A stretch of DNA of 63,922 bases, filler included, from Malassezia furfur (taxonomy: Eukaryota): the NCBI GenBank assembly GCA_052055015.1. It is 3 parts of 3 records of this genome, joined end to end, with 100 filler letters (N's around TTAATTAATTAA, not from the genome) between each part and the next. Parts side by side here need not be neighbours in the genome. Positions count along the whole stretch, not along the records: positions 1 to 22,066 come from JBQJIT010000162.1; positions 22,167 to 44,152 come from JBQJIT010000163.1; positions 44,253 to 63,922 come from JBQJIT010000184.1. The stretch is one strand, 5' to 3'. Below the pieces are notes generated by a model. It searched no databases. It was not told where the DNA came from and worked only from the letters and a program-made list of their open reading frames with translations. The position numbers and the translations under genes are program-made. This document shows positions 1-58,805 of this stretch, piece by piece (positions within the stretch are counted from its first letter, which is position 1; each line of letters opens with the position of its first letter).

Positions 1-655
1 GGTGCGGCGCGCTTTTTGGCGGCGCGCTTGGGCGCGGGGGCCTTGCGCTTCTTGGGTTTGGGCGGAGCACGCTGTACCCAGAGCCGGTTGTCGTCAAACA
101 GCCAGTACGTGTTCCCCTCGCGGTCCCAGCCCGCCGGGTCGACGCGCCAGCTGACGGCGTCCTCGTCGGTGCCGACAAGCCGGCGCAGGCGGTCGGGACG
201 CTCGAGTTGCCACTCGCATAGTGCGTGGAGAAGGTCGAGCTGCGCCTTGACGTCCAACGACGCCCATGCGACCGGTGCATCGTCTGTGCCCAGCACATGT
301 GGGGTCACGTCGTCGGCGCGCGCGTCCCACTCGCGGCGGAGCGCGTCTTGCCACGCGTCGAGGGTCGCCGTGCGGCTGCGCGGAAGTGCATGCAGCAGCT
401 TGAGCGCGAGTGTGGCGATAGCGTGCGTGTCGCCGCGGTCGAGCGCGGTTTCGAGTTGCTGCGTGAGGTCACGCGACGTACCTGAGTTCGGAACCCGTCG
501 AGCTGGAGCGCCTCGTCGAACGTGAGGAGGAACTGGCAGATGGCGGCAAATTTCCAGTTGCTCCGGAGGGAACGTAGCGTTGCGTTGAGCACCGGCGGCG
601 GAGCACGCGGCGGCGGCGCGCGGCGGCCTTCGCGTGCGTCGTTCGGCCTCGCCAT
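1..655 (-). CDS. DDT/WHIM-WSD-type chromatin-remodelling-associated protein, 3' end outside window
   Basis: ATG at 655. Removing a 23-nt intron (459-481) gives LRSNWKFAAICQFL...LHALCEWQL...WRVDPAGWDREGNTYWLFDDNRLW, resembling WHIM/WSD motifs of ISWI partner proteins. Confidence 0.65.
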
Positions 656-789
656 GCCGATCCACGACAAGGGCGAATCGCTCGACGCGCCGCGAGGCCC
701 ATGCACCCTCGGCCGAGGCCGGTGCGGAATTCCGACGCCACGCGGCGCCGCGAAGCCCAGAACGTCGCGAAGGCTGGCCGGCGGCCGCC

Positions 790-2233
790 ATGAGCAGCGA
801 CGCACAGCTGCCGCACCGCGTACAGGCGACGGTCCTGTCGCAGACGTTTTGGGTGGATCCAGCATACAGCATTACAAAGGGGCTTGGTCAGGGCGCGTAC
901 GGATGTGTTGCGTCGGCGGTGCACCGTGCGTCGGGCGAGAGCATCGCCATTAAGCGCATCTCGAACGTCTTTACCAAGCGGATTCTGACGAAGCGCGCAC
1001 TGCGAGAAATCAAGTAGGTTGGGCACTCACTGACGCAGGCTACTGCGCCACTTCCGTGGTCACAAGAACATCACCTGCCTGTACGACCTGGACATCACCA
1101 ACCCCCAGTCGTTCAACGAGGTGTACCTCTATGAGGAGCACATGGAGGCCGACCTGCACGCCATCATCCGGTCCGGACAACCGCTGAGTGATGCACACTT
1201 CCAGAGCTTCATCTACCAGACACTGTGTGGCCTCAAGTACATTCACAGCGCCAACGTGCTCCACCGCGATCTCAAGCCCGGCAACCTGCTCGTCAATGCA
1301 GACTGTGAGCTGAAAATCTGCGACTTTGGCCTGTCGCGTGGCTTTGATGCGGACGGCCAGGCGGTCATGCCGGGTGCACAGGCGTTCATGACCGAGTACG
1401 TCGCCACGCGGTGGTACCGCGCGCCGGAAATTATGCTCTCGCATCAGAACTACACCACCGCAAGTACGTGAAACGCTGACCCAGTTGATCTATGGTCCGT
1501 GGGATGCATCCTGGCTGAGCTGCTCGGCGGCAAGCCGCTGTTCAAGGGCCGCGACTACGTCGACCAGCTGAACCAGATTCTCTACTACCTCGGCACGCCG
1601 CCGGACGACATGCTTGCGCGCATCGCCAGCCCGCGTGCACAGCAGTACATCAAGTCGCTCCCGTTCAAGCCGCGTGTGCCTTTTGAACAGCTGTTCCCGG
1701 ACGCCAACCCGCTCGCACTCGACTTGCTCCGCCGCCTGCTGGCGTTCGACCCCGCCGAACGCATCACGTGCGACGAGGCGCTCCGCCATCCATACCTGGC
1801 CGTCTGGCACGATCCGGCGGACGAGCCGGTGTGCTCGAGCAAGTTTGACTTCAGTTTCGAGCAGGTGGACGACATTGAGAGCATGAAGAAGCTTATCCTG
1901 AACGAGGTAATCAGCTTCCGCCGCGAGGTGCGTCTGCAGGCTCAGGCGCGGCAACAGATGCTGCGCGAGTCCCAGGCACCCGAGTCCACCCAGTATGCCC
2001 AGCTGGCGGCAGGTGACTGGCGGTCCACCCCCCGGCGCCAGGACTCGCTGCCCGTGCCGTCGCGCGAAGAAATCGAGCGTACCACGCCCGAGCACGCCCA
2101 GTTCCCGCAGTTTGGCCACGACGGCCACGGCGGGGGCCTTGCGCCCAGCCGCGTCATTGGCGACGGCTCCACGATGGAAGACCCGAACGAGACCCTCGAA
2201 CGCCAACTGAGCCACTACCATGTACAAAAGTAA
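790..2233 (+). CDS. SLT2: Cell-wall-integrity type MAP kinase (Slt2/Mpk1-like)
   Basis: [20 protein letters not shown] activation loop, [24 protein letters not shown]. Introns 1014-1038 (25 nt) and 1464-1484 (21 nt) restore the conserved sequence. Confidence 0.9.
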
Positions 2234-2268
2234 GCGCGTAGAGCCAGCTAGCGACGCCATGTATATGT

Positions 2269-3138
2269 CTACTGCTTCACAAAGTCGCGACTCAAGTCGA
2301 CACCCTGCAAGTGCGTGTTCTGCAGCTTGAATTTGCGCGGCGCGGCGCCGCGCTTCGGCTTGCCCTTGCGTCCGCGTTGCGCTGATTGTGACTGCACCTT
2401 GGGCGTATTGTCCACCTCCTTGGTGGTGCTGAGCCCCTCTGCAATGAGTGAAGTGCCACGCACCGCTCTCCAGGTCCGCGGTGAGGTCCACCACGTCAGG
2501 CACAGGCAGACTGCGCCACAGCTCTTTGAACTCGGGGTCAATCGGCCGCACCTCCTCGCCGCGGATCGGGTTCCAAAATACATGCTTGATCGCACCGTCG
2601 CGCTTGCCACGCAGCACCAGCACCTCGCGGTCTTCAACCGGCTGGGCGTTGGCAAGCTCTTCGACGGCCTCGCGCGCCTGGGGATACGACTCCTTGAGCT
2701 CTGCCACGCGCATACCCGCCGCCGCCGACTGGGGGTTCAGCGCCGAGGGGTGGTAGTACTTTTCGCGTAACAGCGCAACCAGGTCCGCATTGCTGTGCAC
2801 ATTGTAGTCGGGCTGGGTGAGCGGCGCCACGCACTTTGTAGCTGTACAGATCGGTCTTGGCATTGTACTCGACCTTGGGATGCTGCACGAAGCGCTGAAA
2901 CAGGCCGCTTTTGCTGTCCAGCAGCCCGTTGAGACCGTGCATCAGCGCAAAGTCCTCGAGGCGCACGGGGTTGCCATGCCGCTGCGTCAGCCTGTATCGT
3001 ACCTTGAGCGCATCCACGGCGGCAACCAGCTGTGTGCTCTCGTGTACACCCACACCGGTCGCAGCCGGCTGGCTGTACACCTCGCCCTCGGCCAGCACGA
3101 GGTTGCTGCGTCAGCGCGCGCAATACCTACGTCGACAT
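2269..3138 (-). CDS. TFA2: Transcription initiation factor IIE subunit beta
   Basis: YSYKPDYNV, IDPEFKELW, KLQNTHL motifs. Introns 3106-3130, 2982-3002, 2813-2834, 2439-2463. Confidence 0.85.
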
Positions 3139-3156
3139 CGCGAGACGACCTCCACA

Positions 3157-4997
3157 CTACCGACCGAGCGTGCCTACATCCCACGGCGTGTCCTGCGCCC
3201 CATAGGCCTCTACCGGCCGCCGATAGGGCACGGCGTCCCATGCGTTGCCTTCGACGTCAGGCGAGTCAAGTGGCAGCACCACGCCTAGCTCCCAATTGTT
3301 CAAGGATAGTGTCGGCGCACTCGTCGTGCCAGCGATCGTACCCCAGGCGGCCCGGGTAAAGTTGGCACTGCCCAGGTAGACCCAGCCCATGCCATCCACC
3401 TGGCCCACGAGGCACTTGGCATGCATCAGAATGTCGCCACGGCATGACACGGGCTGGCCGAAGAGCGGCCGTAGTTCCTTCTTCCGAAAGTCATCCGGCT
3501 TCGCAAAAAAGCACCCAGCGCCGGGCGGCCCTTCGACGAAGCGCTCCTGTACATAGGCCTGCGTCGGAAACAAGATCGTCATGCGCGGCCACTCGGTGCA
3601 CCCCGTCAGTTTGGTGAGCTCCTGGGAGGCGCCGGGAGTTGTACGCCGGGGGAGTGGCACGACGCCTTGGACGTCGCAGCCGCTCGCCATTAAGTAAAAT
3701 TGCTCGAGCCATCGCCGCTCGTACACACCGAGCGACGAGCCCTGGGCTTCGAGGCTCATGCGCGGAATGTGTATGCCTAGCGCACGCACAACATGGTGCA
3801 GGCGTCCAATACCCGCACGGGCGATCTCGCGCCAACCCGTGACTTTGGACACCGGCCAACTTGCGACGATGTGTGCTGCGGCGCGCTCAAACGAGTAGGC
3901 TTGTAGTCCTTCAAATACGGGATGCGTACGCGGCAGGCTGAGTGAGTGCAGCACCCGCTCCAGCTGCGCGCGGAACTCGATGCCAGACGCGCGTTGGCTT
4001 GCTGGCTCTGTGGTGTGCGGGGGAAAGTCTTGCACGTAGAACATCTGGGTGAGTGAGCAGACCTACATTTTCGTACCGCGACCAGTCCACCTGCGACAGA
4101 TTGCCAGTAGAGATGACTACTCGGACGTGCGTCGCAAAGAATAGGAGGAGGAGCTTGCTGTGCTGCAGCGCACCAGGGTGGGGCTTGGCAGGCACGCCCA
4201 TCTCCCAGTTGGATGCGCCGCTGCACGGGTAGAAGCCTGGTGGGGGGATACTTGGATCGCGCTGTGCATCGCCACGCGGCGGATTGCCGATGTATGTCAC
4301 TGGGACACAGGGAAAGAGCAACAGGAGCCAGTCGATCTCCACGTCGTACGACGTGAGTAGTACACGGCGCAGTCCGTTGGGCTGCGACCGTGTTGCAGGG
4401 AGGAGCACATCCTCGAGACGAGTACCACAGTGTGTGTTGCGAGCATAGCGATTGTAGGTCGCCTGTGTGAGCTTGTCTGCCTACCTTGATGGCGCCGCGC
4501 CAAAACCGATCTGTGCTGCGGATAGGGGTATACCGACCGGATGGCGCGTTAGGCTGCGGTGCTGAAGCTGACGTAGCGTGGCGTTGCGCCACAGGGCTTG
4601 GCGCACTTGGCTTGGGTTTGCGCGCAGGCTGGGCCGATGTCGTGCGTCGCTTGGGTGTGTACGCACTCCAGGTGAGCGGCGGATCTTGGCTCGCGCGCCG
4701 CTTGCGATCCTGCACACTGGGAGACGATGGTCCAGCAGTGCTTTGAGACGATGGCGGTGTCGGTAGGTTCGAAACCGCTGGCGTGTGCCTCGCGCTTGGG
4801 GTTGTGGGGGTATGTGCGCGCGGGGCTGCACGGGCCTCGGTCGATCCCTGCGCCGCTTGGCGTGCCCGTACACGCGCAAGCCGCTCGCGTTCGAGCTGGG
4901 CGCGGTCTGGAATGACGGTCTGCAGCGATGCGGGCTGCGGCGTGCCTACTCCGTCATCGTCGTCGTCAATCACAATCGCGTCCTGCTGGGACGACAT
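3157..4997 (-). CDS. TDP1: Tyrosyl-DNA phosphodiesterase 1 (PLD superfamily)
   Basis: Two HxK motifs (QHSKLLLL...STGNL; MHAKCL...YLGSANFTRAAWG) and NNWELGV. Introns 4463-4484 and 4045-4066 (22 nt each). Confidence 0.9.
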
Positions 4998-5119
4998 GGC
5001 TTCGGCGTGTGGAGAATGCAAGGACCGCCCCGGCCAGGTGGGTCCGACGTGCCAGGCGGGTTTGGAGCACGGCCGGCAACGTGCCCATGACGGTCTCACG
5101 ACGGATATCATTCTATGGG

Positions 5120-5706
5120 CTAGATGATCCGTACAGGCGGCAGACGCACGCGGTCCTCGAGCGGCGGCGCCCACGACGGCGCGTCGTGATGTTTGCGCGT
5201 CGCAAACGTTTCGTGTTCTGAGTGAGGCGCAACAACGTACCAAGGTCCCACATACGCTTTCGCAGCTCGTGCGTTTCTTCAAACATGTCGGTATAGAGCT
5301 TGCGGAGCGATTCGGCCGCGTCGTCAAACTGCTTGCGCGAGACCACACCCTTTTCGAGCTGGTTCATGCGCGCCTCGACATCCTGGATGCGGTCCAGGTA
5401 GCCCGTCACCTGGAGTCAATCCATCATGCACCTACATTTTGCGCACTGTGCGTGAGCCGCGCGCTACTGGCCATCACCGAGTTGGAAGCCGCGCGGTACT
5501 CTTGCTGCATATAATACACGCCCAGTGTGCCAGCGATGCTGAACCCGATGAGGAATCCGAGTGCGCCACTCGTAAACGGACGCTGGATAAGTGAGGTAGC
5601 GTACCATGGGACCGCGGATCGTGGGCGGTGTACCGACCAGGCGCGGCGGCGCCGTCGCGTACCTCCGTACGCCGAGCATCACAACAGGAGACAGTGGAGG
5701 AAGCAT
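5120..5706 (-). CDS. Hypothetical single-TM, coiled-coil protein with mitochondrial-presequence-like N-terminus
   Basis: Spliced via introns 5583-5604, 5410-5435, 5218-5240: MLPPLSPVVMLGVRRYATA...GALGFLIGFSIAGTLGVYY...RIQDVEARMNQLEK...PPVRII*. Confidence 0.7.
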
Positions 5707-5723
5707 CGGGTGGATCGGGTATC

Positions 5724-8528
5724 TTAGCTATGGAGGGCGCCCCACGCCGCTGCCCACCACGGCTTGGTGCGGGGGGCGGGGGGCTGGTTTTGCGCGCGTT
5801 GCGCCACGCGCTGGAACGCGCGGTGCGCGTGGGTATCAGGGAACGATGCGGCATCGTAGCCCGCCTCGTCTATCCAGGCAAGTGTTTCGGCCACGCCGCG
5901 TGCGTCACCGAGCGCATCGTACGCGCGAGTGAGCTGGCATAACAGGGGGTAAGGAACGACGTTGGGCGCCGAGGCCGAGCGCGTTCCTGTGGGTACTTCC
6001 ACGTGCTCCATCGCGGCGTACTGCGAGGCGCCTGTGAGGTGCCGTGTCCAACGCAACGCATGGGCAATGCGGTCCATGTACAGTACCCACTGCGGCTGGG
6101 TTTGCTTGGCGTGCACCGGCATATGCCGCGCGGCACGCCCCATATGGTACAAGAGGAAGCGGGTCACCGCCAAATCGACAGTGTGCAGCCGCGAGGCGCC
6201 AAGCAGATACAGCTTGGCGGCCGACGCCAGCGCCTGGTTCGTGGCCCGCACGTCTGCCGAACCGGCTTCGCGCAGGGTGTAGCCACGGGCGATGCTTTTG
6301 ATTGCCCAGTTGATCAAGCGGAATTCGGGCGTCCAGCCCTCATCGAGCAGTGCCTGGACGCGGCGCATGGTCGCGCGCGGCGACAGATTCGCGCTCGCGA
6401 GCTGGCTTGGCGTTGCCTCGGCGGCAATGCGGCCGCCCAAGTTCCGCGCCTCGCCGGCCGCCTGGATGCGGTCCGCGAGGTCAAAGCGTGACTGTGTCAC
6501 GCACCGCGAGAGCAACACGGCATAGAGGCGCGCGTTGTTGACTGGATCGCGCGCATCAGCCGCATCGGGCAGAGACAGGAACGCAGCAACAGCCTCGTCG
6601 GCGTGCACATCGACGGCGCCACGGAGTAGGACGGCGAGCGCACTCGCATCAAAGCCGCGGTGGTATAGGATGCGGAACACATCGGCGGCAGTTGCACGGT
6701 CGCCCACAATCAGGGATGCCTGCGCCAGCGCCGTAAGCTCCGGGCGCGAGCGGCTCTCGAGCGGCACGGCCATTAGGTAGTAGTCGCGCACACGCACCGC
6801 GAGCGGCAGGTCGAGGGGCGAGCCGAAGCGGGGCGTGCGCCCAAACAGCTTGACAAGCGCCAGCAAGCATGGCGCTGTGAGAAGCATGCCGGGCGCCATC
6901 GTCTCGGGCGTCGCGCGCACCGCATGGGCGCTCGCGCTGCGGAACGCTGGCGTCACGGCGTCGCGACGGAGCAGGCGCACGAGTGGGCGCACGAGTCCTC
7001 CATGCTCAGCCTCGCCAGCATGCCGCACAGCGGGCGTTGCATGTGTCCATTTGTTGCGTTCCCCGCTCGGCACGATGCGCGCTTGTGGAATCCACTGGGC
7101 AAAGAGCGACCGCGCCTCGTCAGCCATTTCACACGCGGCGACGTAGGCCACGAGCTCAGCCCGTACAGTTGCGGGCCAAAACAGGTCCCACTTGTCGCCC
7201 GGGAGCGCACTGTGCGCCCACGAGTAGAGTGCCTGGGCATCGGCAAAGCGCCGTGTCCGCCAGCAGTGCTGTAGGACGCGCAGTAGCGGCACGGCACCGA
7301 GCTGGAGCAGCAGCGCACGTGCATAAGCAGAGCGCGCGAGTGCCGGCGCCGCATGCGACTGCACGAGGCCCAGGACGGCCTCGGCGATCGCCGGTCGGTC
7401 GAGCTCGATCGCCTTGATGCACACGAGCGCCAAGACGCGCGGCAGCATGTTGACGGCATCAGCGGAGAACATTTCGATCGATGCCTGTGCAGCCGCGAGT
7501 CCATTTCGGGAGGCAGACTGCGCCAGGTGCACAATGTGTGTCTGCAGCAGCGCACGCACCATTTCAGTGCGCGGCGTCGAGGCCGTCAGGACGCCACTCG
7601 CATCGTCCGGCACGCTATGCGCGTCCAGGGCAAGGATCAGTTGGCGTAGCGCGTGTTGAAAGCGGTGCGTGCGGTTGAGACGCAGCCACGTACGGCAGCA
7701 CAGTGACAGGATCGTGATGCGGAGCGCATGCGACGCCCATGCGCCTTGGCATGCCTCGGCAGCGGTTCCATCGGGCTGTGCCTGTCGCCATGCAAGCCAG
7801 CGAGTCCCGTCGGCACGGGCCTGCTGCAGTGTCTGTTCGCCGATCCGCTCGCCGTCGCACTGCACCGTGCGCGAGACGAGGTCCATGAGCGCATCGGAGG
7901 ACAAGTCACTGTACTCGAGCAGATACTCGACCACATGCAGTCCCTCGCCGATGGTCGGATAGTCGCCTGTGCGCACGAGGCGGTGGAACAGCGGCTCAAT
8001 CTGTGCAAGATGGGGCCCCTGGGTGGTGCGGAGAGTGAGCAGGGTGCGAAGGGCATACATCGCGACAAACGGCGGCAGATCGTCGACCGTGCCGGATGGT
8101 CCCTCCAGCAACGCGCCCACCATACGGGACACGAGCTCCGGCTCGATTTGGAGTTTGCGCGCGTTGTAGCTGAGCATGTTGAGCAGCGTGATGAGCAGCC
8201 GACGCAGCCGCTCCGAGTCCGCTGGCGCGATGCGGAGGCTGAGTACGTCGCTCGCGATATTTTGGACCAGTCCTGTGAGTCCTGCGCTGCCCGAGTCGTA
8301 GATGAGCTTGATGAATGACGTGTCTGGCAGCGCCTGGAGCTCGTATGGCGACGCGCGCAGGGCCAAGTACGTCTCGATCGTCGTGGGAAGCGCGTCGTCG
8401 CGTGCAGTCGACACACGACCATGCTCCTGCCAAGCTACGCGTGTTGCCACGCGCCGTGTTGGTATGAGCCACGGCAGCGACGGAGCAACGACGCGGCGCC
8501 GCGCCAGCGCCGCGAGTCGGCTCGCCAT
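5724..8528 (-). CDS. Large helical-repeat (possibly PPR-like) protein, probable mitochondrial targeting
   Basis: Long intronless ORF. Likely ATG at 8528 (MASRLAALARRRVVAP, Arg-rich presequence-like). Leu/Ala-rich helical segments such as NARLYAVLLSRC. The family call is weak. Confidence 0.6.
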   Translation of the reverse strand: MASRLAALARRRVVAPSLPWLIPTRRVATRVAWQEHGRVSTARDDALPTTIETYLALRASPYELQALPDTSFIKLIYDSGSAGLTGLVQNIASDVLSLRIAPADSERLRRLLITLLNMLSYNARKLQIEPELVSRMVGALLEGPSGTVDDLPPFVAMYALRTLLTLRTTQGPHLAQIEPLFHRLVRTGDYPTIGEGLHVVEYLLEYSDLSSDALMDLVSRTVQCDGERIGEQTLQQARADGTRWLAWRQAQPDGTAAEACQGAWASHALRITILSLCCRTWLRLNRTHRFQHALRQLILALDAHSVPDDASGVLTASTPRTEMVRALLQTHIVHLAQSASRNGLAAAQASIEMFSADAVNMLPRVLALVCIKAIELDRPAIAEAVLGLVQSHAAPALARSAYARALLLQLGAVPLLRVLQHCWRTRRFADAQALYSWAHSALPGDKWDLFWPATVRAELVAYVAACEMADEARSLFAQWIPQARIVPSGERNKWTHATPAVRHAGEAEHGGLVRPLVRLLRRDAVTPAFRSASAHAVRATPETMAPGMLLTAPCLLALVKLFGRTPRFGSPLDLPLAVRVRDYYLMAVPLESRSRPELTALAQASLIVGDRATAADVFRILYHRGFDASALAVLLRGAVDVHADEAVAAFLSLPDAADARDPVNNARLYAVLLSRCVTQSRFDLADRIQAAGEARNLGGRIAAEATPSQLASANLSPRATMRRVQALLDEGWTPEFRLINWAIKSIARGYTLREAGSADVRATNQALASAAKLYLLGASRLHTVDLAVTRFLLYHMGRAARHMPVHAKQTQPQWVLYMDRIAHALRWTRHLTGASQYAAMEHVEVPTGTRSASAPNVVPYPLLCQLTRAYDALGDARGVAETLAWIDEAGYDAASFPDTHAHRAFQRVAQRAQNQPPAPRTKPWWAAAWGALHS

Positions 8529-8579
8529 CGCAGGTGCGAAGGAAGAAGGTTGTGTACGTAAGCCGACACTCCACCCACC

Positions 8580-8867
8580 ATGGGGCGGTCGGCGGTACGT
8601 GGCATGCTCACCCAGAAAATGTACAAGAAGCCCGTACGTGGCACACTTACCTAGGCCAAGCGGCGGAGCTCGGCTGCAGAGATGCCCAAGGCGCCTGTGC
8701 GTGAGGAGCGCATTGCGCCGCCCGCCCGTATCGACGTTAGCGCACGACCGGCATCCAGCCGCAAACACGGCTTGCGCGGCAAAGCGCGACGCGGCGATGG
8801 GCCGCTGCCCGCCGAGGCGGGCATTGACTATGTCGGGATGTGGGAAGGGGGGAAGAAACAGCATTAG
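8580..8867 (+). CDS. Small basic hypothetical protein (81 aa, MGRSAK...DYV)
   Basis: ATG 8580. Removing two 21-nt GTACGT...AG introns (8595-8615, 8634-8654) joins MGRSA/KMYKKP/AKRRSSAAE in frame to ORF 8682-8867. Confidence 0.75.
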
Positions 8868-8907
8868 ACCAATTAGCGAACCTATACTACTAGAAGGGAC
8901 GAGATGA

Positions 8908-11900: not shown

Positions 11901-12088
11901 GCGATCGTCGTGGGGCCACTCACCGTCCGACTGCGCTTCACTGACGCAGTCTTGGCGGGCGACGACGCAACGCTGCGCGGCACGCGACCTGCATTCGCGA
12001 CAAGTTCTTCAATTTCTTTCCTGTCGAGCCCCCCAGCATTGTCTTGCTGGTTGTGGCCCAGGCGCCGAATCCAGGAGCCCAAAGTCAT
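8908..12088 (-). CDS. Large Ala/Lys/Glu-rich low-complexity protein with KKEAEEKA repeats, spanning an N gap
   Basis: ATG 12088 ([10 protein letters not shown]). The repeat reading frame resumes after the gap and runs into ORF 8908-9915. Polybasic C-terminus. Confidence 0.75.
10250..10815 (-). repeat. Coding minisatellite, 24-nt unit (EAEEKAKK) plus degenerate AKEAE variants
   Basis: Tandem CTTCTCCTCGGCCTCCTTCTTGGC on both sides of the N gap at 10339-10400. Confidence 0.9.
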
Positions 12089-12231
12089 CTGGTGGTGCTT
12101 GTTTACCTCGTCTGAGCGCCCAACGAGCGCCGGGTACGGATGCGGCGATATGGCCACGTGGACCCCATGCGCCTCTCCACATTCATTTCCCCGCATGCAT
12201 TGTGACGTCACGCGCACCGACACCTACCACC

Positions 12232-14013: not shown

Positions 14014-14043
14014 ATTACTTAGGGCGGGCCCTCGGCTCTTGAA

Positions 14044-15309: not shown

Positions 15310-15474
15310 CTTGCTCGTGGACGCGCGCTACAAAGAGCAACTTGGACTGCCAAAATGCACGAGCAGCTGGAAAGTCTATTGTGCAGCACGTGGGCCAAGC
15401 CTGCAGCGTACGGTCCGATTGCAGTGCCCGATGCAAAAATTACGAAGCGCATCAAGCTTCTACGTATCCCGATC

Positions 15475-45879: not shown

Positions 45880-46579
45880 ATGGCCAAGGCTGTTGGTGTT
45901 CCCAGTACGTATCGCTGTGCGGCGCCCGAGAACGATGCTGACCATGCGCAGAGGATATTGCTGCCATCTCGCTTCCCGAGGCTGGCTCTGTGCGTCTCTT
46001 CGGCAAGTGGGACACGCAGGACATTGAGGTGAAGGACATCTCGCTGACCGGTACGTTTTCGCACAGCGCGCTTATACAGACTACATCTCGCTCCGCAATG
46101 CCGTCTACACGCCGCACACCGCGGGCCGCTACGCCTCGAAGCAGTTCCGCAAGGCGCAGATGCCCATTGTTGAGCGGTTGGTCAACGACCTGATGTTCCA
46201 CGGCCGCAACAACGGCAAGAAGCTCATGGCCGTCCGCATCGTTGCGCACGCCTTTGAGATCATCCACCTCCTCACGGACGCGAACCCGATCCAGATCCTC
46301 GTCGACGCCATCATCAACACGGGCCCCCGCGAGGACTCGACCCGTATCGGCTCGCAGGGCACTGTCCGTCGCCAGGCCGTCGATGTGTCGCCGCTCCGCC
46401 GCGTGAACCAGAGCATTTCGCTCCTCACCACCGGCACCCGTGAGTCGGCGTTCCGCAACGTGAAGAGCATTGCCGAGTGCCTTGCGGATGAGCTGATCAA
46501 CGCCGCCAAGGGCTCGTCCAACTCGTACGCCATCAAGAAGAAGGACGAGCTGGAGCGTGTCGCCAAGTCGAACCGTTAA
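45880..46579 (+). CDS. RPS5: 40S ribosomal protein S5 (uS7)
   Basis: [32 protein letters not shown]. Introns 45905-45951 and 46051-46079. Confidence 0.97.
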
Positions 46580-47060: not shown

Positions 47061-47916
47061 ATGTTTCGCCTTGGACGCACCGCACTCGGTCTGCACGCAT
47101 TTGCAGCGCCGCGCATGCGCGTGTCGTGCGCACCACTCCGGTTCGCACGGTCCGCATCCACCGACGAGCTGAGCCGTGCGCGGCACCTGCAGCAGCAGCT
47201 TCGCGCACAGGACATCCGTAAGCGCAACCAGAGCATCGTGATGTACACTGCATCAGGGGTACGTGGACCGCAGGAATCTCACCGCTCTAGTTTATCATCG
47301 TGCTTGGTTTGTGCTACGCGGCGGTCCCCCTGTACCGCGCCTTCTGCTCCGCGACGGGATACAGCGGCACGCCTATGACGGACCGCTCGCGCTACTCGGA
47401 CGAATCGCGTCTGCGCCCTTCCTACACGGATCCATTCGACGAAGAACGCAAGACACAGCGGATTCGCGTCGCGTTCAACGCGAGCCACTCGGACCAGATT
47501 CCATGGTCGTTTGTGCCGGAGCAGCGCGAGATTTACGTGCTCCCGGGTGAGACCGCACTGACATTCTTCAAGGCGCACAACCCGACGGACCACGACATTA
47601 TCGGAATTGCGACCTACAACGTTGTGCCTGACCGGATTGCGCCCTACTTTGCCAAGATCGAGTGCTTCTGCTTTGAGGAGCAGAAACTGCTCGCGGGCGA
47701 AGAAGTCGACCTGCCTGTCTTCTTCTTCCTTGACAAAGAGATGCTGGAGGATACCGACACACGCGACGTCAAGGACGTCATGCTCAGCTACACGTTTTTC
47801 AGCGCGCGGCGCAACCCGGTGACCGGGCAGCTCGAGTACGTATGCACTACCAGTGATGCTCACACTCCAGACCGGACACGGACCTGTCCAAGTACCGCGT
47901 CGGGATGGACGCCTAA
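47061..47916 (+). CDS. COX11: Cytochrome c oxidase copper chaperone
   Basis: YAAVPLYRAFC, PGETAL, YFAKIECFCFEEQKL, LSYTFF. Introns 47259-47290 and 47836-47870. Confidence 0.95.
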
Positions 47917-47987
47917 AAGCGGCAGCAGCGTAGAATTACACAGGATGTATACCAGAAAATGTCGACCAAAGACACGTCGGCAGGCGC

Positions 47988-50143: not shown

Positions 50144-52956
50144 TTAGTAGCCCTTGGGAATGCGCCGCTGCTTGTGCCCGGAGCTGCGCTTCTTGCCGTC
50201 GCGCTGGTCTTTGCGCTTTTGCGCACGCAGCTCCTTCTTCATGCGGGGGTCGACCATGCGGTAGCGGCCCTTGGTGCCCTTCGGGCGGCCCTTAATTCCG
50301 CGGTTCGCGCCGCGCGCCACGACGAGCTGCGGCGGCTTCTTCTCGCTGCCCGCCTTCTTGGCCATCGACTTGGCCATGATCTTGTTAATGTTCTCGGCCT
50401 TTTCGCGCTCGGTCAAGTCAGCGTTCTCGTTGATGGCCTCGGCACGCTTCTGTGCCTTTTCCAGGCGCATCGCAGCACGGTGCTTCTTGCGCGCCTTGGC
50501 CTCGGCAATCTTCTTGATGGGACGCGCATCCAGCGCACGCTGCCGCGCGCGCAGCGCCTCGACAGCCTCCTTAGAGACGGGGATATTGGTGCGGTAGTGC
50601 TCGTTCTCGTCGTCCAAGAACCACTGCGGCAGGCCCGACTTGTCGTTGAAATTGTGCTTCGAGAAGCCCTGGTCGACCAGGTCCGACTTGGTCATCTGCC
50701 GGTTCACGAGCGCATGCGCCATCGACACCGCCTCGGCAGTGTGCAAGCCATGCCGCGCGATCTTTTCGCGCTTCGCCGCATCGGGGTCCTCGTCGTGCAC
50801 ACTCCACGAGCCGTCCGGCACATTGGCGGCAAAGCTCGAGGGAACGGTCTCGATGTCATCATCGTACATCGTTTCGCTCTCCTCATCCTCGTCCTCGTCT
50901 TCGTCTTCGTCCATCTCTTCGTCCTCTTCAAGTTCCGGCGTGCTTTCCTCGGCCTTGCGCTTCGGCACGAGCACCTCAAGCGGCAACATGTCCTGGAACA
51001 CGGGGTTGTCGTACCACATTGCCGACTCAGCGCTCTGGCGCTGCCTCAGCTCCGCGTCCGACTCGAGCGGCGTGAGCAGTGACTGTGTCGCTCCGCGCCC
51101 GCGCTTGGGCGCATTTGCACGCGTCGCCTGCGGCGCCGGCTGCGCCTCAGCGAGCTCGGCGCGCTCGTCTTCGTCGTCCTCCGCATCGTCCGAGTCGTAC
51201 GTCTCCTCCGCAAACTTGCGCCGGTTCACCGAGTCGTAGCCCTTCTCGACATTCACATCCGAGTCTGCGTCGCTGTCGTCGCTCTTCTTGTCCGCGTCGA
51301 TGCCACCCCACTCTTCGTACTTGGACGACTTGCGCCGCGCCTCCTTCGCACGGAACTTGGCGTCGCGCTCCTGGAGGTGGTGCTGGTACTGCTCGTACAT
51401 CGAGTCCATGCCCGACTCGAGCTCACGAATGCGCCGCTCCTTTTCGTCGTCGTCCGAGTCGTCCTCGGACACGTCTTCGTCCGCCGACGCCACGTCGGCC
51501 TCGGACGCCTCGTCGCTCATGGCATCCTCCGCATCCAGAAGCTCGGCGTGGCCACGACGCGGGCCGTGGCGCTCGAGCGCATCGAGCGAAAAGGTCTCGG
51601 CACCACCGTGGAGCGCCTCGTCCGTCCAGTCCTCGCCGAGCTCCATCGGCGTCGACATGTTCAGCTGCAGCTTCTGCAGCGCCTTGGCGCGCGCCTCGTT
51701 CCGGCGGCGGCGCTCCTTGCGCGCGCGCTTCGTAGACTCTTCGTTAAGGCGCGCCAACTCCTCGTCCATCGCCTCCTCCTCGTTCAGCGGCTCGACTTCG
51801 ATGGTCTGCGTCGCCTCGGCGTCCTGCTCCTGCTGCTTCTTGTTGCGGTCCAGGCCAAGCTTCTCGCGCAGCGCCTTACGCCACTTGATCAGCGACGAGA
51901 AGTCGCCACGGCCAAGCACCTTGAGGTCCTCGCAGTTCGCGCGGATGTCGTCGGTGGTCAGCGGGTCGCGGAGCAGCTCCTGGTCCTCCTCCGAGTCAAA
52001 GGTGATGCGGTTGTACGTGCCGAGCGCCGCGATCGCATCGGTGCTGCGCACATAGTCTGCGGCGGCAATCGTCTTGTACAGGGTATAGTTGCCTTCCTCG
52101 TAGCCCTCGCGCTTGCGTCGCGCCTTTTCGGGGTTCACGACGTTTTCGAGCAGGTTGTGCGAGCTGGTGCCCGACATCTCCTTGGATGCCGACGTCGGAT
52201 CAAGCTCCTTGAACACGTATTTCGGGTCGAGGAACTTGGGGTCGATGCGCTTCATGTTCTTGAAGCGCTGGCACACCACGAAAATCTCGGCAGAGACATT
52301 ACGCGACGACGGCGGCTTCGTGGCCTCGACGTGGTGGAAGAGCTGGTTGAACACCCAGACGAGGTTGTTGTAGTCCTTCGAACGGAACACTTTCGTAACG
52401 AACGTGCCGCCCGGCGCCAGGAACTCGACGGCAAGCTTGAGTGCTTGGAGCGTCAGCTCCGACTGGGCGTACGCGTCCTGAACCCATGCAGTACCGACGT
52501 TCGGCGCACCGTCGTGCAACACGACATCGGCGCGCCAGTCCTTGAGGTTCTCGCGGAGCTGGTCACGGCACTTGTACGAGTTGATGTCCTCGGCAAACGT
52601 GATACAGCGGGGGATCGGCTTGATAGGGACAAGGTCGACACCTGGGGTCAGTGGCGTGATCGGCGTACGCACCGACAATCAGACTGTTCGGAGGCATGTG
52701 CTTCGATGCCACTTGCAGCCAGCCACCGGGCGCCGCACACAAGTCGATACAGCAGTGCGCATCCTCCAAAAACTTGTATTTCTTGTTCAGCTGCACGAGC
52801 TTGAACGCGGATCGGGCGCGATAGCCCTGCTCCCTGCGGTCAGTGTTTCGCGAGTGTATACACACTTGGCGAGCCAGTAGAACTTGTCGAGACGGCTGTG
52901 GTGTGAGCGGTGCGGCCGACGTACCCCTTGCCCGACTTCTTGTCGTGCTTGCCCAT
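50144..52956 (-). CDS. SPB1: AdoMet-dependent 27S pre-rRNA methyltransferase
   Basis: [50 protein letters not shown]. Introns 52896-52924, 52834-52865, 52642-52672. Confidence 0.96.
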
Positions 52957-53092: not shown

Positions 53093-55338
53093 ATGGACCG
53101 CGAGCTAGACGACATTGACTACTCGGACATCGAGGCCAAGTATGCCGTGCCGTTCGATGATAGTCTCGAGAATGTGATTATTATCAACGGTGTGCCGGTC
53201 ATCACGTCGGCAAAGCAGCAGAAGCTGTTCGAGACGATCCAGAAGCGCTTCCGGACCCAGGCAGAGATCGAGGTGCCGCTGGAATGCATGCACATCTCGT
53301 ACGGCGACAATGGCGAGTCGAAGGGGTATGTTTGGGGCACGTCTGACCCCGCAGCTACATGCTTATGGAGCTGGCGAACGCGGACGAAGCTGCGCACGCG
53401 ATCCGCACCATGGACAACTACGCATTTGACAAGAAGCACCACTTCCTGGTGAACCGCTTCAGCGACATTGAGCGCCTGACCAACATGGACGAGACATACG
53501 TCGAGCCGGAGGAGGAGCCATATAAACAGCGCGGCCACCTGCGCTCCTGGCTTGCGGACCCGGCGGGCCGCGACCAGCTGGCGATCTGCTGCGGCGATGA
53601 GGTGCAGATTGCGTGGCACAACCGCGCGTCGAACCCCGAGATTGTGCACACACGGACACGCTGGACCGAGTCGTACGTGCAGTGGTCGCCGCTCGGCACC
53701 TACCTGGCCACGTTCCACCTCCAAGGCATCGCGCTCTGGGGTGGGTCCGCCTGGGAGCGGATCATGCGATACCCCCACCCTGGTGTGCGCCTCGTCGACT
53801 TTAGCCCGGACGAGAAATACATGGTGACGTGGTCTGCAGAGCCGATCCAGGTCCCTGAAAACGCCCCCCAGGGCCCGCAGTTCTTTGCGCCCGAGGACGA
53901 GGGGAACCGCGTCGCGGTGTGGGAAGTGCGCACCGGCCACCTGCTGCGTACCTTCCCCATCCAGCAGGAGGAGACAGTCACCGAGACCGGCCAGCAGGTT
54001 AAGGGTTTCAGCTGGCCCTTCCTGAAATGGAGCGGCGACAGCAAGTACTGTGCTAAAGTGACGCCCGGCAAGGCGATCAGCGTCTACCAGGTGCCGAGCA
54101 TGGGCCTGCTCGACCAAAAGAGCATCCGCATCGACGGTGTCGTCGACTTTGAGTGGTGCCCGCTGGGCGACAAGGACAAGGAGGCGCTCGAGGTGTGGAA
54201 CGAGGGCAAGAACCCCAACCTGCCCAAGGGCTTCAAGAAGCCGCGTGACAATATGCTGTGCTACTGGCAGCCCGAAGTCGCGAACCAGCCGGCCCGTGTG
54301 ACGGTGATGAGCGTACCGACGCGCGAGGTGCTGCGCTCCAAAAACCTGTTCAACGTGGCCGACTGCAAGCTGCACTGGCACCCGCAGGGCGACTACCTCT
54401 GTGTCAAGGTGGACCGCCAGACCAAGACCAAGAAGACGGTCTTTTGCAACTTTGAGCTGTTCCGCATGCGCGAGAAGGACTTCCCGGTGGAGGTCGTGGA
54501 GCTCAAGGACCCGGTACTTGCCTTTGCCTGGGAGCCGCAGGGCAGCCACTTTGCGGTGATCTCCACCAACGACCCCAACTTTGGCGTCGTGGCACCCGGT
54601 GTGACGCTCAAGACGCAGCTCAACTTCTACCACCTGCACCCGCGTGGCAACTTCCGCCTGCTCAAGGCGTTCGACAACAAGGCGTGCAACTCGCTCTTTT
54701 GGTCGCCGCGCGGCCGCCACCTGCTTGCGGCCACGCTCGGATCTACGCAAAAGTTCGAGCTGGAGTGGTACGACGTCGACTTCAACATCGAGGCGCGCCA
54801 GAATGCCAACAACCCGGATGTGCTTGAGGAGGTGAAGCTGATCGGCAGCGGTGAGCACTACAGCATGACCGACATCGAGTGGGACCCGAGCGGTCGCTAC
54901 GTGACCACCAGCGCGAGCCTGTGGCGCCGGTCGACCGAGCACGGCTACGCGATCTGGAACTTCCACGGTGTGGAGCTGCAGAAGCACATCCTCGAGCAGT
55001 TCAAGCAGATTCTATGGCGCCCGCGGCCCAAGACGCTGCTCAGCAAGGAGGACCAGAAGCGCGTGCGCCGCAACCTTCGCGAGTACTCCAAGATCTTCGA
55101 CCAGGAGGACGAGGCGGAGGAGAGCAGCCAGGCGCTCGCGCACCGCGAGGTGTATCAGCGCATGGTCCAGGAGTGGAAGGAGTGGCGCGAGCGCAACCGC
55201 GAAAAGCTCGAGGAGGCCAAGCAGGTGTACAAGACGGACCCTGCCGCGCTCAGCGCCGAGCAGCTCCAGAAGGAGAGCACCGAAGAGGTGCAAGAGTGGA
55301 TGGAGGAGATCCTCGAGGAGACCGAGGAACTCGTCTAG
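53093..55338 (+). CDS. PRT1: Translation initiation factor 3 subunit B
   Basis: N-terminal [30 protein letters not shown]. Intron 53326-53354. Confidence 0.96.
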
Positions 55339-55447
55339 GCACGCACATGGTGATAGGGAGCATAGTCCACACCCGGTACGGTCCATGGCCCAGGGGCATC
55401 CGCGCCATACGCTTTCCAGAGACACTGCGGTGTCAAGACTATCACAT

Positions 55448-56260
55448 CTACTTCTTCGCGCCGCCGTTCACCTTGATCCATTGCGAGCGCGCGCCGAGGA
55501 GCGAGCTGAGGGTACCCGCCGCACCAATCACGCCCTCGTTGAAGCTGAACCAGCCGGTGCTCGTACCGGGGTTCACAATGTCGCACGCGTCCTGCAGCAT
55601 CTGCAGGCGCACCGCCTTGGTGTCCGCCGCAAGCTGGTGCAGCTCGACACGGCGCTCGGCCTCCTTCTCGGCCGTCGCACGCGGGCGCTGCGCAAACTTG
55701 AGGCGCTGCGCAAGCTGGTGCGACTTGTACACGCCGCTGATCAGCGAGAAGGTCAGACCAATGAGCCAGAAGCGCGCCGCGTTCTTCGAGATCTTCTGCG
55801 CGGTCTCCTTCTCGAAACGCACGGCCTTGGCACCCTGCATCCACTGCAGCGCATCGAGGATCAGGTAGAACGCGTAGCCAAGCTGGCGGCCCACAGCGGT
55901 GACCATCAGCACCGGGTCCGCAGTGCTCGTCGCCTTGAGCGCGGCCTGGAAGTGCTCCAGGAACTTGCCGATACGGAAGACTGGACATGAGCATGAAATA
56001 CGTACGCTTGCGGCTCAAGCCGATGTTCGACTTAATCGACGACCAGCGTGCGACAGTCTCCTTGGGCGCGCCGCGGCTCAGCGTGTACCACGCCAGAAAG
56101 CGCGAAAGGTACTGAACCGAACGCGACGTCTTGTCGCGACCGACAGTCGTGCTCCAGAACTTGAGCTGCACAGGGTGTTAGCATCTCATCCAGCATGCAT
56201 CTCAACACTTACCAACTGCGAGATGTACGGGTGCAGCACAATCTGTTGGACCGAGGCCAT
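55448..56260 (-). CDS. PEX11: Peroxisomal biogenesis factor 11
   Basis: VLHP, TTVGRDK..RSVQYLSRF, RKLFRIGKF, QDACD, GVIGAAG. Introns 56166-56212 and 55981-56005. Confidence 0.93.
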
Positions 56261-56502
56261 GGTTCGATAGCGGTGGGGTGAAAGAGCCAGCTGCCGCTAC
56301 GGCAGCCATGACCGGAATATCGCCGGGCCTTACTTCAGCGTGCGGGGGTGCTGAGTCAGCAGTTGTCGTGCAGCGCAATCTTATTAGCTTTGGCACCGCC
56401 GAAATTCACGCCCGCCGGACGGTCAGCCGGTGCCCAACGGACCAATCCGCATGCGCGAAATTCTACGAGCTACGGCACCGTGCGCAAGGGCGCGAAGTGG
56501 AC

Positions 56503-57994
56503 TTAGAAGACCGTCTGCGAAGCACCGTCCCCGAGGCGCGCGTCGAGCGTCTGCAGCGCCTGCCGCGCCTCGCTGACCATGCGCTCCATCACCGCAGGTG
56601 TGTCGTCATCTGCGGCCAGCGGCTTCGTCTCGCGCTGACGGAGCTGCTGTGCGGCCATCCCCAGCGCCAGCACACGGCGGTACACGCGCTGCGCCGTTGC
56701 AAGCTCGTCCTGCGTCGGCGTCGTCTCGGTTGCTCCGCGCGCATTCATGAGCATATGTCCATAGTTCATCATTGCGGGCATGAAATCTGGGTGAATATAC
56801 CACGTACTTTTGCTCGCTGCGGCAGCAAACCATTCGCGCGCGCTGCGGTCGTCAGGCACGACGCCCCACCGCGACTGGTGCGAGCGTTTTTGCTCCTCTG
56901 TTGCTGACGATGCATCGGGTGCATCCGTGATGAGGTAGCGCAGGCCCATGTTGTAGGCACTTGCTGCATGCCCGTGCTGCGCCGCTTGCAAAAAGTAGCG
57001 GTTAGACAGCGTGATCGCTTCATGCGCTGCTTTGGCGTTGTTCTGCTCGCGCAGCTCGTCTGCCCGCGTGGCATGTTGCACACCAAGTGCGTAGGAGCAT
57101 TGCGTACTTCCTGCACGCGCACCTTGCTCGAAGCATTCCTGCATGCGGTCGGTGTCGCGACCCAGGTACGGCGTGCCTTGGTACAATCTGCCAAGCTCGT
57201 ACCAGGCATCGGGCATGCCGCTCTTTCCTGCGCGCTCCCATAGTTCAATTACGCGGGGCATGCGGCTTGCAGCAGTGTCGGGGGCCGCGTCGATCTGGGC
57301 CAAAAGAACGCGGCCCATGCCAAACAGGGCTTGGGGATGTCCTTTGCGGGCCAGCGTCGCGTAGAGTTCCATGGCCTCGTCAGCGGCACGCTTAGGATCT
57401 TCCGAGCCTTGGATCATGCCTTCGAGCACCATTGTCGCCCACGAATAGCCAGCGTCGTCGTCGCCGCGACGATGCGCAAGTGCATAGAGCTGACCAACCA
57501 CTTTGTTTCGGCGTGCGTCGCGGCTCAGTTGCAGAATTGCCGCGGCAAGTTTACGCAGTGCCGAGGGGGGAAGACGGTGGTTGTCCACGACTGGGTCAGT
57601 GTACAAAGACGGACCTTGGTATACTTGTCCCTCTGTCTCTCGGTCGACGCCTTCCGCCGGAGTGTTCAGCAGGAGGGTAACGATGGACTCGGCGACATCT
57701 TGGGGGACAGGGTACCGCTTGGACGGCGGAACAAGACCTGGTGTTAGCGGGATACGTACGTCGGAGTTGGGCTAGCGCTGCGCGGTCCTGCGCGGGATCG
57801 GCTGCCGTTGCAAAGGTACGCGAAGCAGCTGTCGGGGTACGAGTGGTGGGTAGATGCGTGCATGATTCGGCCCGCAAGTGGGCTGTTCCTCTCAGAGGTG
57901 TTACTTTGGTTGCATGGGGGGTACTCGTCACAATGTGCCGCACTGCGCGCGGTGCGGCCTGTGCACGAAGCGCGCGGACCAGGTGGGTGAACAT
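56503..57994 (-). CDS. Mitochondrial Sel1-like repeat protein (possibly Mss2-like)
   Basis: Presequence-like MFTHLVRALRA and SLR repeats (GHPQALFGMG, GMPDAWYELG, GHAASAYNMG). Introns 57738-57759 and 56787-56807. Confidence 0.75.
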
Positions 57995-58249
57995 CGTAGG
58001 AAGTTTCCCTCCACACAGTCCAGTCACCAAAAAGGGCCCATTTCTCGTAAGAGATCCGGACGGGGAGGCAAAGAACCATACAATAGGAGCCTGCACGGCA
58101 CAACGTATCTATCAACATAACATACCAGCCGGCCACATAAGCACAAACCATGGTGGGATACGATCACTTCGTCTCTATCAGGTATCATACAGCAAGCACA
58201 GAGTCAACGCCCTATGGCTTGCCCGTGCGTGACGTAATGGAATGCGGTT

Positions 58250-58805
58250 TTACGCAGAGTTCACACCCGTGTTCTTTTGCTTGAGGTTCCGCGAGAACTC
58301 GCCGTAGCAGTGCTCACAGATATGGTGCTGCAGCTTGGGCCGTGCACAGCCAGGGCAGTGCACGAGGTCTGGTAGGGTTAGTCGGGTGTCGATGCCATGT
58401 GTACGTACTGATGCGGTCCTTCAGGCCCTTGTTGGCCGAGCGCATCGCCTTGCGCGAGTGCGACACCTTTTTCTTGGGCGCGGCGAGGAGCAGGCCGTCC
58501 CAAGCCTCGGGGCCTTCTGACACAGGCATGGCAGGGAGAGTGAGGCCAGCGCCCGCGGGGGCGAGCGCGCCAGCATCCGAACCATCGTGCGGCGAGTTTC
58601 CGAGGGTATGCGAAAGCGTTGTGGTGATCTGGGCGGCCCACTGGCGCAGGAAGTGCGGGACGTGGACCGTGAGAAGCGGCATGGCAGCCGCGACGTACAC
58701 CGGTGCCGCAGGCGTGGTTGTGGACAGAGTGTGCGCAAAGGGCGACACGATGCGCATGCTACGCAGCGCACCCATGGAAACCAGCATACTGAGGCTCGTG
58801 CGCAT
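58250..58805 (-). CDS. MRPL32: Mitochondrial ribosomal protein bL32m
   Basis: LLLAAPKKKVSHSRK, CPGC..PKLQHHICEHC. Intron 58369-58408. Confidence 0.93.

Follow-up and report, generated by a model that had tools for sequence, protein, structure and literature searches.

A stretch of 63,922 bases of Malassezia furfur DNA (hereafter the window; approximately 64% GC, with five runs of N) carries 60 GT-AG introns, most of them shorter than 30 nucleotides (nt) and none shorter than 21 nt. The floor at 21 nt is the sum of two separate minima and not a limit on total length: the predicted branch A never lies before intron position 16 and is never followed by fewer than five bases, hence the floor of 21. 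Length variation is almost wholly confined to the 5' spacer, while the 3' part is anchored. The segments are very probably ordinary spliceosomal introns of the U2 type (GT-AG), compacted until nearly every base is a splice signal.

Number and length of the introns

Candidates were obtained from a position weight matrix (PWM) scan combined with a gene map, which gave 61 curated segments, of which 60 were kept. Two purpose-built Viterbi gene finders served only as a source of candidates; they recovered the short introns along with spurious "introns" of 100-400 nt, merged genes and wrong strands. The final independent rebuild yielded 60 GT-AG introns, whose lengths have 24.5 as their median and 26.3 nt as their mean. 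By length in nt, the numbers were nine at 21, ten at 22, seven at 23, four at 24, ten at 25, five at 26, one at 28 and four at 29; the remainder comprised one at 31, three at 32, one each at 35, 36 and 40, two at 47 and one at 58. Thus 45 of the 60 introns measure 21-26 nt and 50 measure 30 nt or less, a narrow mode with its bulk below 30 nt, as in the ultra-short intron class. The introns are spread over about 26 of about 41 genes, approximately 60 per 64 kb or one per kb.

An earlier note on this DNA had counted 58 introns, 45 of them of 21-26 nt, nine of 21 nt and none shorter; the rebuild gave 60, 45, nine and none, and recovered all nine 21-nt introns at the same starts and on the same strands. 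The occurrence of micro-introns with none below 21 nt is therefore confirmed. The span given in that note, 459-58408, agrees with the introns at its two ends (459-481 and 58369-58408), but an additional intron at 58641-58698 was accepted as well.

Intron anatomy and the two-part floor

For this analysis the 3'-most YTNAY of each intron was taken as the branch site. All nine 21-nt introns are then built alike, consisting of a 6-nt donor (GTAYGT in eight, GTACGA in one), a 6-nt spacer, YTNAY, one base and YAG. GT at the start and AG at the end are present in all 60 introns, YAG in 59. The descriptions in the earlier note held for most of the introns and were too strict for the others. Its donor GTRYGT occurs in 48 of 60, the looser GTRNGT in 55, and GTACGT itself in 33, an extended 5' splice site of the GURNGU type. 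Its branch motif CTNAC occurs in 45; the looser form (YUNAY in the RNA), which places a predicted branch A upstream of the 3' site, is present in 59, and the remaining intron has CTAAG. The spacer of 6-10 nt between hexamer and pentamer applies to 43 of 59. In contrast, its placing of the branch A at about position 16 in the shortest introns was borne out in nine of nine introns of 21 nt, and so was the lack of a polypyrimidine tract, since in 58 of 60 no run of pyrimidines exceeds 5 nt. These data support the view that the rigid architecture leaves no room for such a tract.

The branch A lies at position 16 in 11 introns, 17 in eight, 18 in 11, 19 in six and 20 in seven, from where the tail thins out to 37. 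It is followed by five bases in 34 introns, six in 12 and seven in four, so that the stretch behind the A measures 5 or 6 nt in 46 of 59 introns. The two minima appear to act separately: the corner where both are reached (position 16, 5 nt) holds all nine 21-nt introns, with 6.3 expected under independence, and among the 25 introns with at least 6 nt after the A the lowest A position is still 16. In addition, the first AG after the branch A is the 3' splice site in 60 of 60 candidates, a count made before the segment 15758-15805 (see below) was removed. The 3' end thus combines the missing tract with a near-fixed distance from branch to AG. Lengths divisible by three occur in 14 of 60 introns, a weak depletion (P = 0.063).

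Enrichment of the intron motif

The strict pattern GTRNGT-N(0-60)-CTNAY-N(0-12)-AG, whose shortest possible match is 13 nt, was counted in the window, in the reversed sequence and in 100 dinucleotide shuffles.

13-20 nt: real 0; reversed 2; shuffles 1.83
21-26 nt: real 37; reversed 6; shuffles 2.91 +/- 1.52 (maximum 7)
27-35 nt: real 10; shuffles 4.56
36-86 nt: real 25; shuffles 22.6 (no enrichment)

The excess over shuffles is about 13-fold at 21-26 nt. At a PWM score of at least 14 there were 28 real matches against none in the control at 21-26 nt, and none against one at 12-20 nt. The motif signal is therefore real, confined to approximately 21-35 nt, and stops abruptly at 21. Scans without a motif, in which GT..AG pairs joining open or well-scoring frames were collected, did not separate from control dinucleotide pairs and were abandoned as a length test; they are uninformative because many frames are open at 64% GC and because any boundary pair near a true intron shifts the frame alike.

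Removal of the segments restores conserved proteins

Removing the introns restores frame and conserved protein. Fifty-nine of the 60 junctions then lie within continuous open reading frames (ORFs), the exception being 43976, which is cut off by an N run. Support from a profile, a homologue or a paralogue exists for 28 introns, eight of which occupy four positions shared between paralogues. All introns are listed below with coordinates, strand, length and evidence; ORF stands for ORF continuity, HMM for profile hidden Markov model positions, and A for the branch A.

459-481 (-): 23 nt, A at 18, 5 nt to 3' end; PWM 14.8, spliced ORF
1014-1038 (+): 25 nt, MAP kinase gene; Pkinase HMM 1-50 / 51-177
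1464-1484 (+): 21 nt, MAP kinase gene, in-frame TGA; Pkinase HMM 51-177 / 177-263
2439-2463 (-): 25 nt, TFIIE beta gene; homologue alignment ungapped over junction
2813-2834 (-): 22 nt, TFIIE beta gene; homologue alignment ungapped over junction
2982-3002 (-): 21 nt, donor GTACGA, without in-frame stop; 7-residue gap in 3/3 homologues
3106-3130 (-): 25 nt, TFIIE beta gene; PWM 16.0, ungapped against P0002
4045-4066 (-): 22 nt, Tdp1 gene; Tyr-DNA_phospho HMM 22-131 / 143-403
4463-4484 (-): weak candidate, 22 nt, donor GTAGGC; PWM 11.0, ORF only
5218-5240 (-): 23 nt; PWM 14.2, continuous ORF in frame 1
5410-5435 (-): 26 nt, in-frame stop; PWM 10.5, ORF
5583-5604 (-): 22 nt, donor GTACGC; PWM 11.7, ORF
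8595-8615 (+): 21 nt, without in-frame stop; PWM 18.1, product aligns with P0185
8616-8633 (+): 18-nt micro-exon flanked by two 21-nt introns; P0185 alignment
8634-8654 (+): 21 nt, in-frame TAG; PWM 16.8, P0185 alignment
14202-14229 (-): 28 nt, paralogue B; position and phase as 15525-15549
14596-14619 (-): 24 nt, paralogue B; position and phase as 15913-15934
14758-14781 (-): 24 nt, paralogue B; position and phase as 16073-16094
14805-14827 (-): 23 nt, paralogue B; position and phase as 16118-16143
15525-15549 (-): 25 nt, paralogue A; PWM 15.1, paralogue comparison
15913-15934 (-): 22 nt, paralogue A; PWM 17.8, paralogue comparison
16073-16094 (-): 22 nt, paralogue A; PWM 17.0, paralogue comparison
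16118-16143 (-): 26 nt, paralogue A; PWM 15.5, paralogue comparison
20597-20617 (-): 21 nt, in-frame TAG; PWM 17.9, ORF
21558-21582 (-): 25 nt, branch variant CTAAG; PWM 14.1, ORF
21639-21664 (-): 26 nt, NECAP-like gene; DUF1681 HMM 61-102 / 103-125
21808-21830 (-): 23 nt, NECAP-like gene; DUF1681 HMM 1-59 / 61-102
27726-27757 (-): 32 nt, PS decarboxylase gene; PWM 16.8, ORF
29851-29874 (-): 24 nt, in-frame stop; PWM 16.1, ORF
30126-30151 (-): 26 nt, rhodanese gene; PWM 17.2, ORF
30843-30867 (+): 25 nt, Nop56/58-type gene; PWM 17.6, ORF
32986-33006 (-): 21 nt, Pol alpha subunit B gene, in-frame TAG; DNA_pol_E_B HMM 1-37 / 38-208
33205-33227 (-): 23 nt, in-frame stop; PWM 11.8, ORF
33611-33631 (-): 21 nt, without in-frame stop; 7-residue gap in 65/70 spanning homologues
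34886-34910 (+): 25 nt, TFIIIC Tau95 gene; Tau95 HMM 1-75, 26-residue exon, 103-136
34991-35012 (+): 22 nt, A at 16, 6 nt to 3' end; Tau95 HMM arithmetic
35121-35141 (+): 21 nt, in-frame TGA; PWM 17.7, ORF
35407-35428 (+): 22 nt; PWM 17.3, ORF
35847-35871 (-): 25 nt, RanBP1 gene; exon up to 36153-36175 equals Ran_BP1 HMM 16-107 exactly
36153-36175 (-): 23 nt, RanBP1 gene; PWM 17.5, Ran_BP1 HMM 16-107 exon
36283-36308 (-): 26 nt; PWM 12.8, ORF
36768-36790 (+): 23 nt, p24/EMP24 gene; EMP24 HMM 1-90 / 110-178 (from residue 12 of the next exon)
37034-37055 (+): 22 nt; PWM 17.1, ORF
38622-38646 (+): 25 nt, AAG acceptor (alternative 46 nt, CAG at 38667); PWM 14.3
43976-44011 (+): candidate, 36 nt, multiple of three, without stop; PWM 16.7
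45481-45509 (+): 29 nt, TBL1/Sif2-like WD40 gene; PWM 17.1, ORF
45905-45951 (+): 47 nt, RPS5 gene; PWM 18.1, ORF
46051-46079 (+): 29 nt, RPS5 gene; PWM 16.6, ORF
47259-47290 (+): 32 nt, COX11 gene; PWM 16.1, ORF
47836-47870 (+): 35 nt, COX11 gene; ORF
52642-52672 (-): 31 nt, Spb1 gene; FtsJ HMM 1-45 (exon end about 50) / 51-181
52834-52865 (-): 32 nt; PWM 15.5, ORF
52896-52924 (-): 29 nt; PWM 16.9, ORF
53326-53354 (+): 29 nt, eIF2A gene; PWM 15.4, ORF
55981-56005 (-): 25 nt, PEX11 gene; PEX11 HMM 5-57 / 59-222
56166-56212 (-): 47 nt; PWM 15.6, ORF
56787-56807 (-): 21 nt, Sel1-repeat gene, without in-frame stop; 7-residue gap in 6/8 spanning homologues
57591-57614 (-): 24 nt, donor GTCCGT, without stop; 8-residue gap in four homologues, unclear in two
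57738-57759 (-): 22 nt, A at 16, 6 nt to 3' end; PWM 18.3, ORF
58369-58408 (-): 40 nt; PWM 16.4, ORF
58641-58698 (-): 58 nt, longest accepted; PWM 16.5, ORF

As an alternative, the segments could be coding insertions, assembly errors or non-spliceosomal elements. Seven of the 14 introns of a length divisible by three contain no stop and could be read through, two public gene models (P0001 and P0006) do translate through some introns, and one 48-nt motif match proved coding. Retention of 46 of the 60 segments would break the frame, however, and seven more carry in-frame stops. Profile positions are continuous only after intron removal: the Pkinase HMM runs over two junctions, DUF1681 over another two, and DNA_pol_E_B, PEX11, FtsJ and Tdp1 over one each, at the positions listed above. 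For Tau95 the count closes by arithmetic, as profile position 75 plus 2 plus the 26-residue exon gives 103.

The 21-nt introns without a stop were compared with homologues. If 2982 is retained, an exact 7-residue gap appears in all three homologues (an unnamed sequence, Tilletiaria anomala and Obba rivulosa). For 56787 the same exact gap is found in six of eight spanning homologues, including the non-Malassezia Violaceomyces palustris (P0030); of the remaining two, one has a split 7-residue gap and the other is a near-identical ENA model that retains the intron. For 33611, exactly those seven residues are missing from 65 of 70 spanning homologues, the gap lying at most two positions from the intron, whereas three of the other five have no gap and two show other patterns. 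Removal of 8595 and 8634 yields an 81-residue product that aligns end to end, micro-exon included, with a 79-residue M. vespertilionis protein (P0185). The introns at 20597 (TAG) and 35121 (TGA) have as their basis an in-frame stop, a high motif score and ORF continuity only. Sequence searches of the PDB with TFIIE beta and with the Dre2 exon returned no match, and the PDB alignment of Pol12 starts just past the 33611 intron, so that it does not span that junction. Together with the GT..YTNAY..YAG signature, which is of spliceosomal type and exceeds shuffles 13-fold, these results make a non-intronic origin highly improbable.

Several points nevertheless weigh against our account. The 32 introns outside the supported group rest on motif and ORF continuity, and we infer splicing, branch choice and efficiency from DNA sequence. 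The 61st curated candidate, at 15758-15805 (-) with donor GTACCT, was rejected: its 48 nt are coding and correspond to 16 residues present in the tandem paralogue, the paralogue alignment score rising from 585 to 645 when they are kept. It is a warning that motif and ORF continuity can mislead for segments of a length divisible by three. The candidate at 43976, 36 nt long and free of stops, lies next to an N run. At 38622 either the AAG at 38646 (25 nt) or the CAG at 38667 (46 nt) could be the acceptor, both in the same frame, and the Viterbi gene finders chose the 46-nt form. Seven introns hold a second, upstream YTNAY with its A at 12-15. Finally, with 60 introns from one window, rare shorter introns elsewhere in the genome are compatible with the data.

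With respect to 38622-38667 (+), which lies in the Dre2/CIAPIN1 gene, the choice between the two acceptors could be a case of alternative 3' splicing by which seven residues are gained or lost.

Sharpness of the floor

The sharp edge might be a small-sample impression, introns of 18-20 nt being rare genome-wide and the true edge softer, a minor but real possibility. With 60 introns from a single 64-kb window, introns of 20 nt at one third the frequency of the 21-nt ones would have been missed with P = 0.05, although a class of equal frequency is excluded (P = 1e-4). Low-scoring candidates of 16-20 nt (PWM 11-14.2) were in fact found at nine places. Four of these are nested in higher-scoring longer introns (14805, 15913, 46051 and 47836), the one at 40088 falls within an MFS_1 domain that is unbroken and would be frameshifted by its removal, that at 42070 is a palindrome matching both strands, and three (16500, 35638 and 58109) are without coding support. 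At a PWM score of at least 10 the control even had more short candidates than the real sequence (7 against 5). Moreover, the length class right at the edge, with nine introns, is the second largest, unlike a tail. No residual frame break was present among 25 modelled genes, so any undetected intron would need to be stop-free and a multiple of three in length. By default the aligner STAR counts gaps of less than 21 nt as deletions, and the default of HISAT2 is 20, so that reads aligned with default settings would create a floor at this very length.

For a check across species, the species with an intronless orthologue and the other Malassezia-like contigs offered too few motif matches. A metagenome scan for relatives of the Sel1-repeat gene returned 13 loci, nine of them Malassezia-like with 52-58% GC, and the strict motif was not enriched in the contigs (for example L002, 13 real against 14 in the control; L006, 17 against 28). 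In contig L002 (Malassezia-like, 52% GC) the Sel1-repeat orthologue at 10001-11212 is one unbroken match of 1212 nt. The three introns that this gene has in the window are absent there, and intron content thus varies among Malassezia species.

Comparison with short introns of other organisms

The genus is known for very short introns, as the earlier note had acknowledged, and the novelty of the present set is correspondingly lower. A curated set of 5350 introns from M. sympodialis, 99% of them supported by RNA-seq, has a mean of 30 bp (PMC5389616, whose Figure S8 gives the intron length distribution according to its legend). In M. restricta the mean is 37.2 and the median 30 (PMC9241646), and its annotators lowered the minimum intron length to 20 and 15 (PMC6473144); a review speaks of "very short introns" in Malassezia (PMC7426719). 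For M. globosa, a MAKER annotation arrived at 76-79 bp (PMC4634964). The phenomenon seen here is the same as in M. sympodialis and M. restricta, with slightly shorter introns at 64% GC. In the accessible text of the open-access literature searched, we found nothing on a length floor in Malassezia, on the position of the branch or on anchoring of the AG to it. Nor did we find in print the two-part floor, the first-AG rule or the annotation failures described below, all of which are useful refinements.

The earlier note had also placed these lengths in the range of ciliates and microsporidia, below those of other fungi, and published values agree. The median in Ustilago maydis is 95 nt (PMC2483917), and the means in Cryptococcus neoformans and P. 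hubeiensis are 63 and 426 bp (PMC8476143); hence such lengths are not common in the other Ustilaginomycotina compared, U. maydis and P. hubeiensis. Introns of about 25 bp are reported for Paramecium and Nyctotherus and of 18-20 bp for chlorarachniophyte nucleomorphs (PMC5014332), while those of myxozoans have medians of 22-27 bp and those of microsporidia and dicyemids are also ultra-short (PMC13644364). In all these lineages the introns are of the same length class, and length is possibly part of their recognition (PMC5014332, PMC13644364). The organism considered here differs from them in being a basidiomycete yeast, free-living or commensal, whose introns follow a strong consensus. In contrast to Paramecium, depletion of lengths divisible by three is weak, and half of such introns are stop-free. 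In its accessible text a 2026 survey of introns below 30 bp covers ciliates, microsporidia, dicyemids and myxozoans with no occurrence of Malassezia (PMC13644364), so the case seems to have drawn too little notice beyond its field.

Two systems are close in architecture. Stentor coeruleus has 15-nt introns with the branch A at position 10, together with all small nuclear RNAs (snRNAs) and most core spliceosomal proteins (PMC9505925). These introns resemble the present ones in their GT-AG ends, in a fixed branch A and in the 5 nt that follow it (15 - 10). They differ in a lariat loop of 10 nt against at least 16 here, in weak, U-rich signals with only GUA conserved against full GUAYGU and YUNAY on a GC-rich background, and in a nearly fixed length (15-16 nt) against a floor with a spread of 21-58 nt. 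Yarrowia lipolytica has ACTAAC followed by 2 nt and AG, without a pyrimidine tract (PMC2483917, Irimia and Roy 2008), which by our arithmetic again leaves 5 nt after the A. The tract-less 3' end with a branch fixed a few bases from the AG is shared by Yarrowia, Trichomonas vaginalis and Giardia lamblia. These organisms are described as intron-poor, unlike the window with about one intron per kb, and Y. lipolytica introns, at a median of 204 nt (PMC2483917), are not ultra-short.

A possible mechanism and its limits

If the introns are of the ordinary U2 type, as we consider very probable, the minimal form would begin with GUAYGU as the 5' splice site (6 nt), continue with 6 or more nt of spacer and the branch site YUNAY (5 nt), and end with one base and YAG. 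Judging by general splicing biochemistry, the hexamer would pair with U1 and later with U6, and the branch site with U2. Recognition would proceed by intron definition, and the 3' site would be picked by its nearness to the branch, without a pyrimidine tract bound by U2AF, as may be the case in Yarrowia, Trichomonas and Giardia.

The two minima may have different origins. Since the distance of 5 nt from branch to 3' end recurs in Stentor and Yarrowia, this minimum is probably imposed by the geometry of the second step as a general limit; the values are 16 + 5 here, 10 + 5 in Stentor and long + 5 in Yarrowia. The 16-nt minimum on the 5' side is probably specific to the lineage and not an absolute limit of the catalytic core, since the 10-nt lariat of Stentor means that 16 is not a universal steric limit. 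It probably reflects that a single RNA has to carry full-length helices at the 5' splice site and the branch simultaneously, or else U1 together with a branch-binding factor. The 5' minimum may thus depend on the share of the intron that is held in helices.

The earlier note had proposed instead that the spliceosome of this lineage is remodelled, with components lost, shortened or altered, and that its steric limit sets the 21-nt floor. In a 21-nt intron, which lacks a pyrimidine tract, only 6 nt separate hexamer and branch pentamer. At such spacing U1, SF1/U2AF and SF3b would overlap in their canonical footprints. For Stentor, altered active-site regions of Cwc25 and Isy1, smaller proteins and a conjectured "steric-clash avoidance" have been reported (PMC9505925). 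The floor seen here, however, acts on the distance from 5' splice site to branch and not on total length. Stentor forms its 10-nt lariat with all snRNAs and most core proteins, so a distance of 16 nt needs no special machine, and the strong canonical signals point to standard pairing with U1, U2 and U6. The window itself gave no match to an snRNA in an Rfam scan and contains no clear splicing factor gene, its WD40 gene being TBL1-like. The evidence can be accounted for without a remodelled spliceosome, and we regard this explanation as possible but unlikely.

Similarly doubtful is a stricter form of the two-part floor, in which a hard limit (no lariat loop below 16 nt, no fewer than 5 nt between branch and 3' splice site) would be combined with lineage-specific changes in early recognition (SF1, U2AF, U1) or in branching factors that enable U1 and U2 to act 6 nt apart. 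Were it true, Malassezia would be a genetically tractable fungus offering the first experimental system for ultra-short introns outside ciliates and nucleomorphs.

Consequences for annotation

Micro-introns that are stop-free and divisible by three in length (seven of 60) are invisible to ORF logic, and public models do read through them. The NCBI model MBRA1_001822 of M. brasiliensis (P0001, 815 residues; window 2269-4700, -) has Tdp1, TFIIE_beta and TFA2 domains in one protein and translates the intron orthologous to the 21-nt intron 2982-3002 as seven codons. Two adjacent genes have probably been fused in this model through missed micro-introns. An ENA-derived model with 99% identity to the window (P0006; window 56506-57771, -) retains two such introns: it translates through the 21-nt intron 56787-56807, and its start lies within the 24-nt intron 57591-57614. 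A comparative study treated M. sympodialis as an intron-poor fungus (PMC8476143). Set against the density of about one intron per kb found here, this suggests that older annotations may undercount Malassezia introns.

Paralogues, micro-exons and gene content

Two tandem paralogues with 42% identity over 308 residues, no clear Pfam family and a GC content of 57% occupy 14044-16685 (-). They share four intron positions and phases, with lengths of 26/23, 22/24, 22/24 and 25/28 nt; intron lengths thus drift by a few bases between the paralogues, yet stay above the floor. Each also has a paralogous 23-nt micro-exon between micro-introns (16095-16117 and 14782-14804, both -). The 18-nt micro-exon at 8616-8633 (+) belongs to the conserved 81-residue protein mentioned above.

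A Pfam scan of stop-to-stop ORFs of at least 110 residues on both strands revealed a dense set of housekeeping genes. These include MAP kinase, TFIIE beta, Tdp1, POP1, Pol alpha subunit B, TFIIIC Tau95, RanBP1 and p24, as well as Dre2, RPS5, COX11, dyskerin, RPL22, Spb1, eIF2A, PEX11 and isocitrate lyase. The closest named protein matches were from M. brasiliensis (94% and 86% identity); others were from M. psittaci, M. vespertilionis, M. cuniculi and M. pachydermatis, so that the attribution to Malassezia in the earlier note stands. The region 5727-12223 (-) contains very long open frames at 5727-9029 (1101 residues), 8911-10338 and 10403-12223 without a Pfam match. Strongly negative AT skew marks 8-12 kb, and 10339-10401 is a masked run of N.

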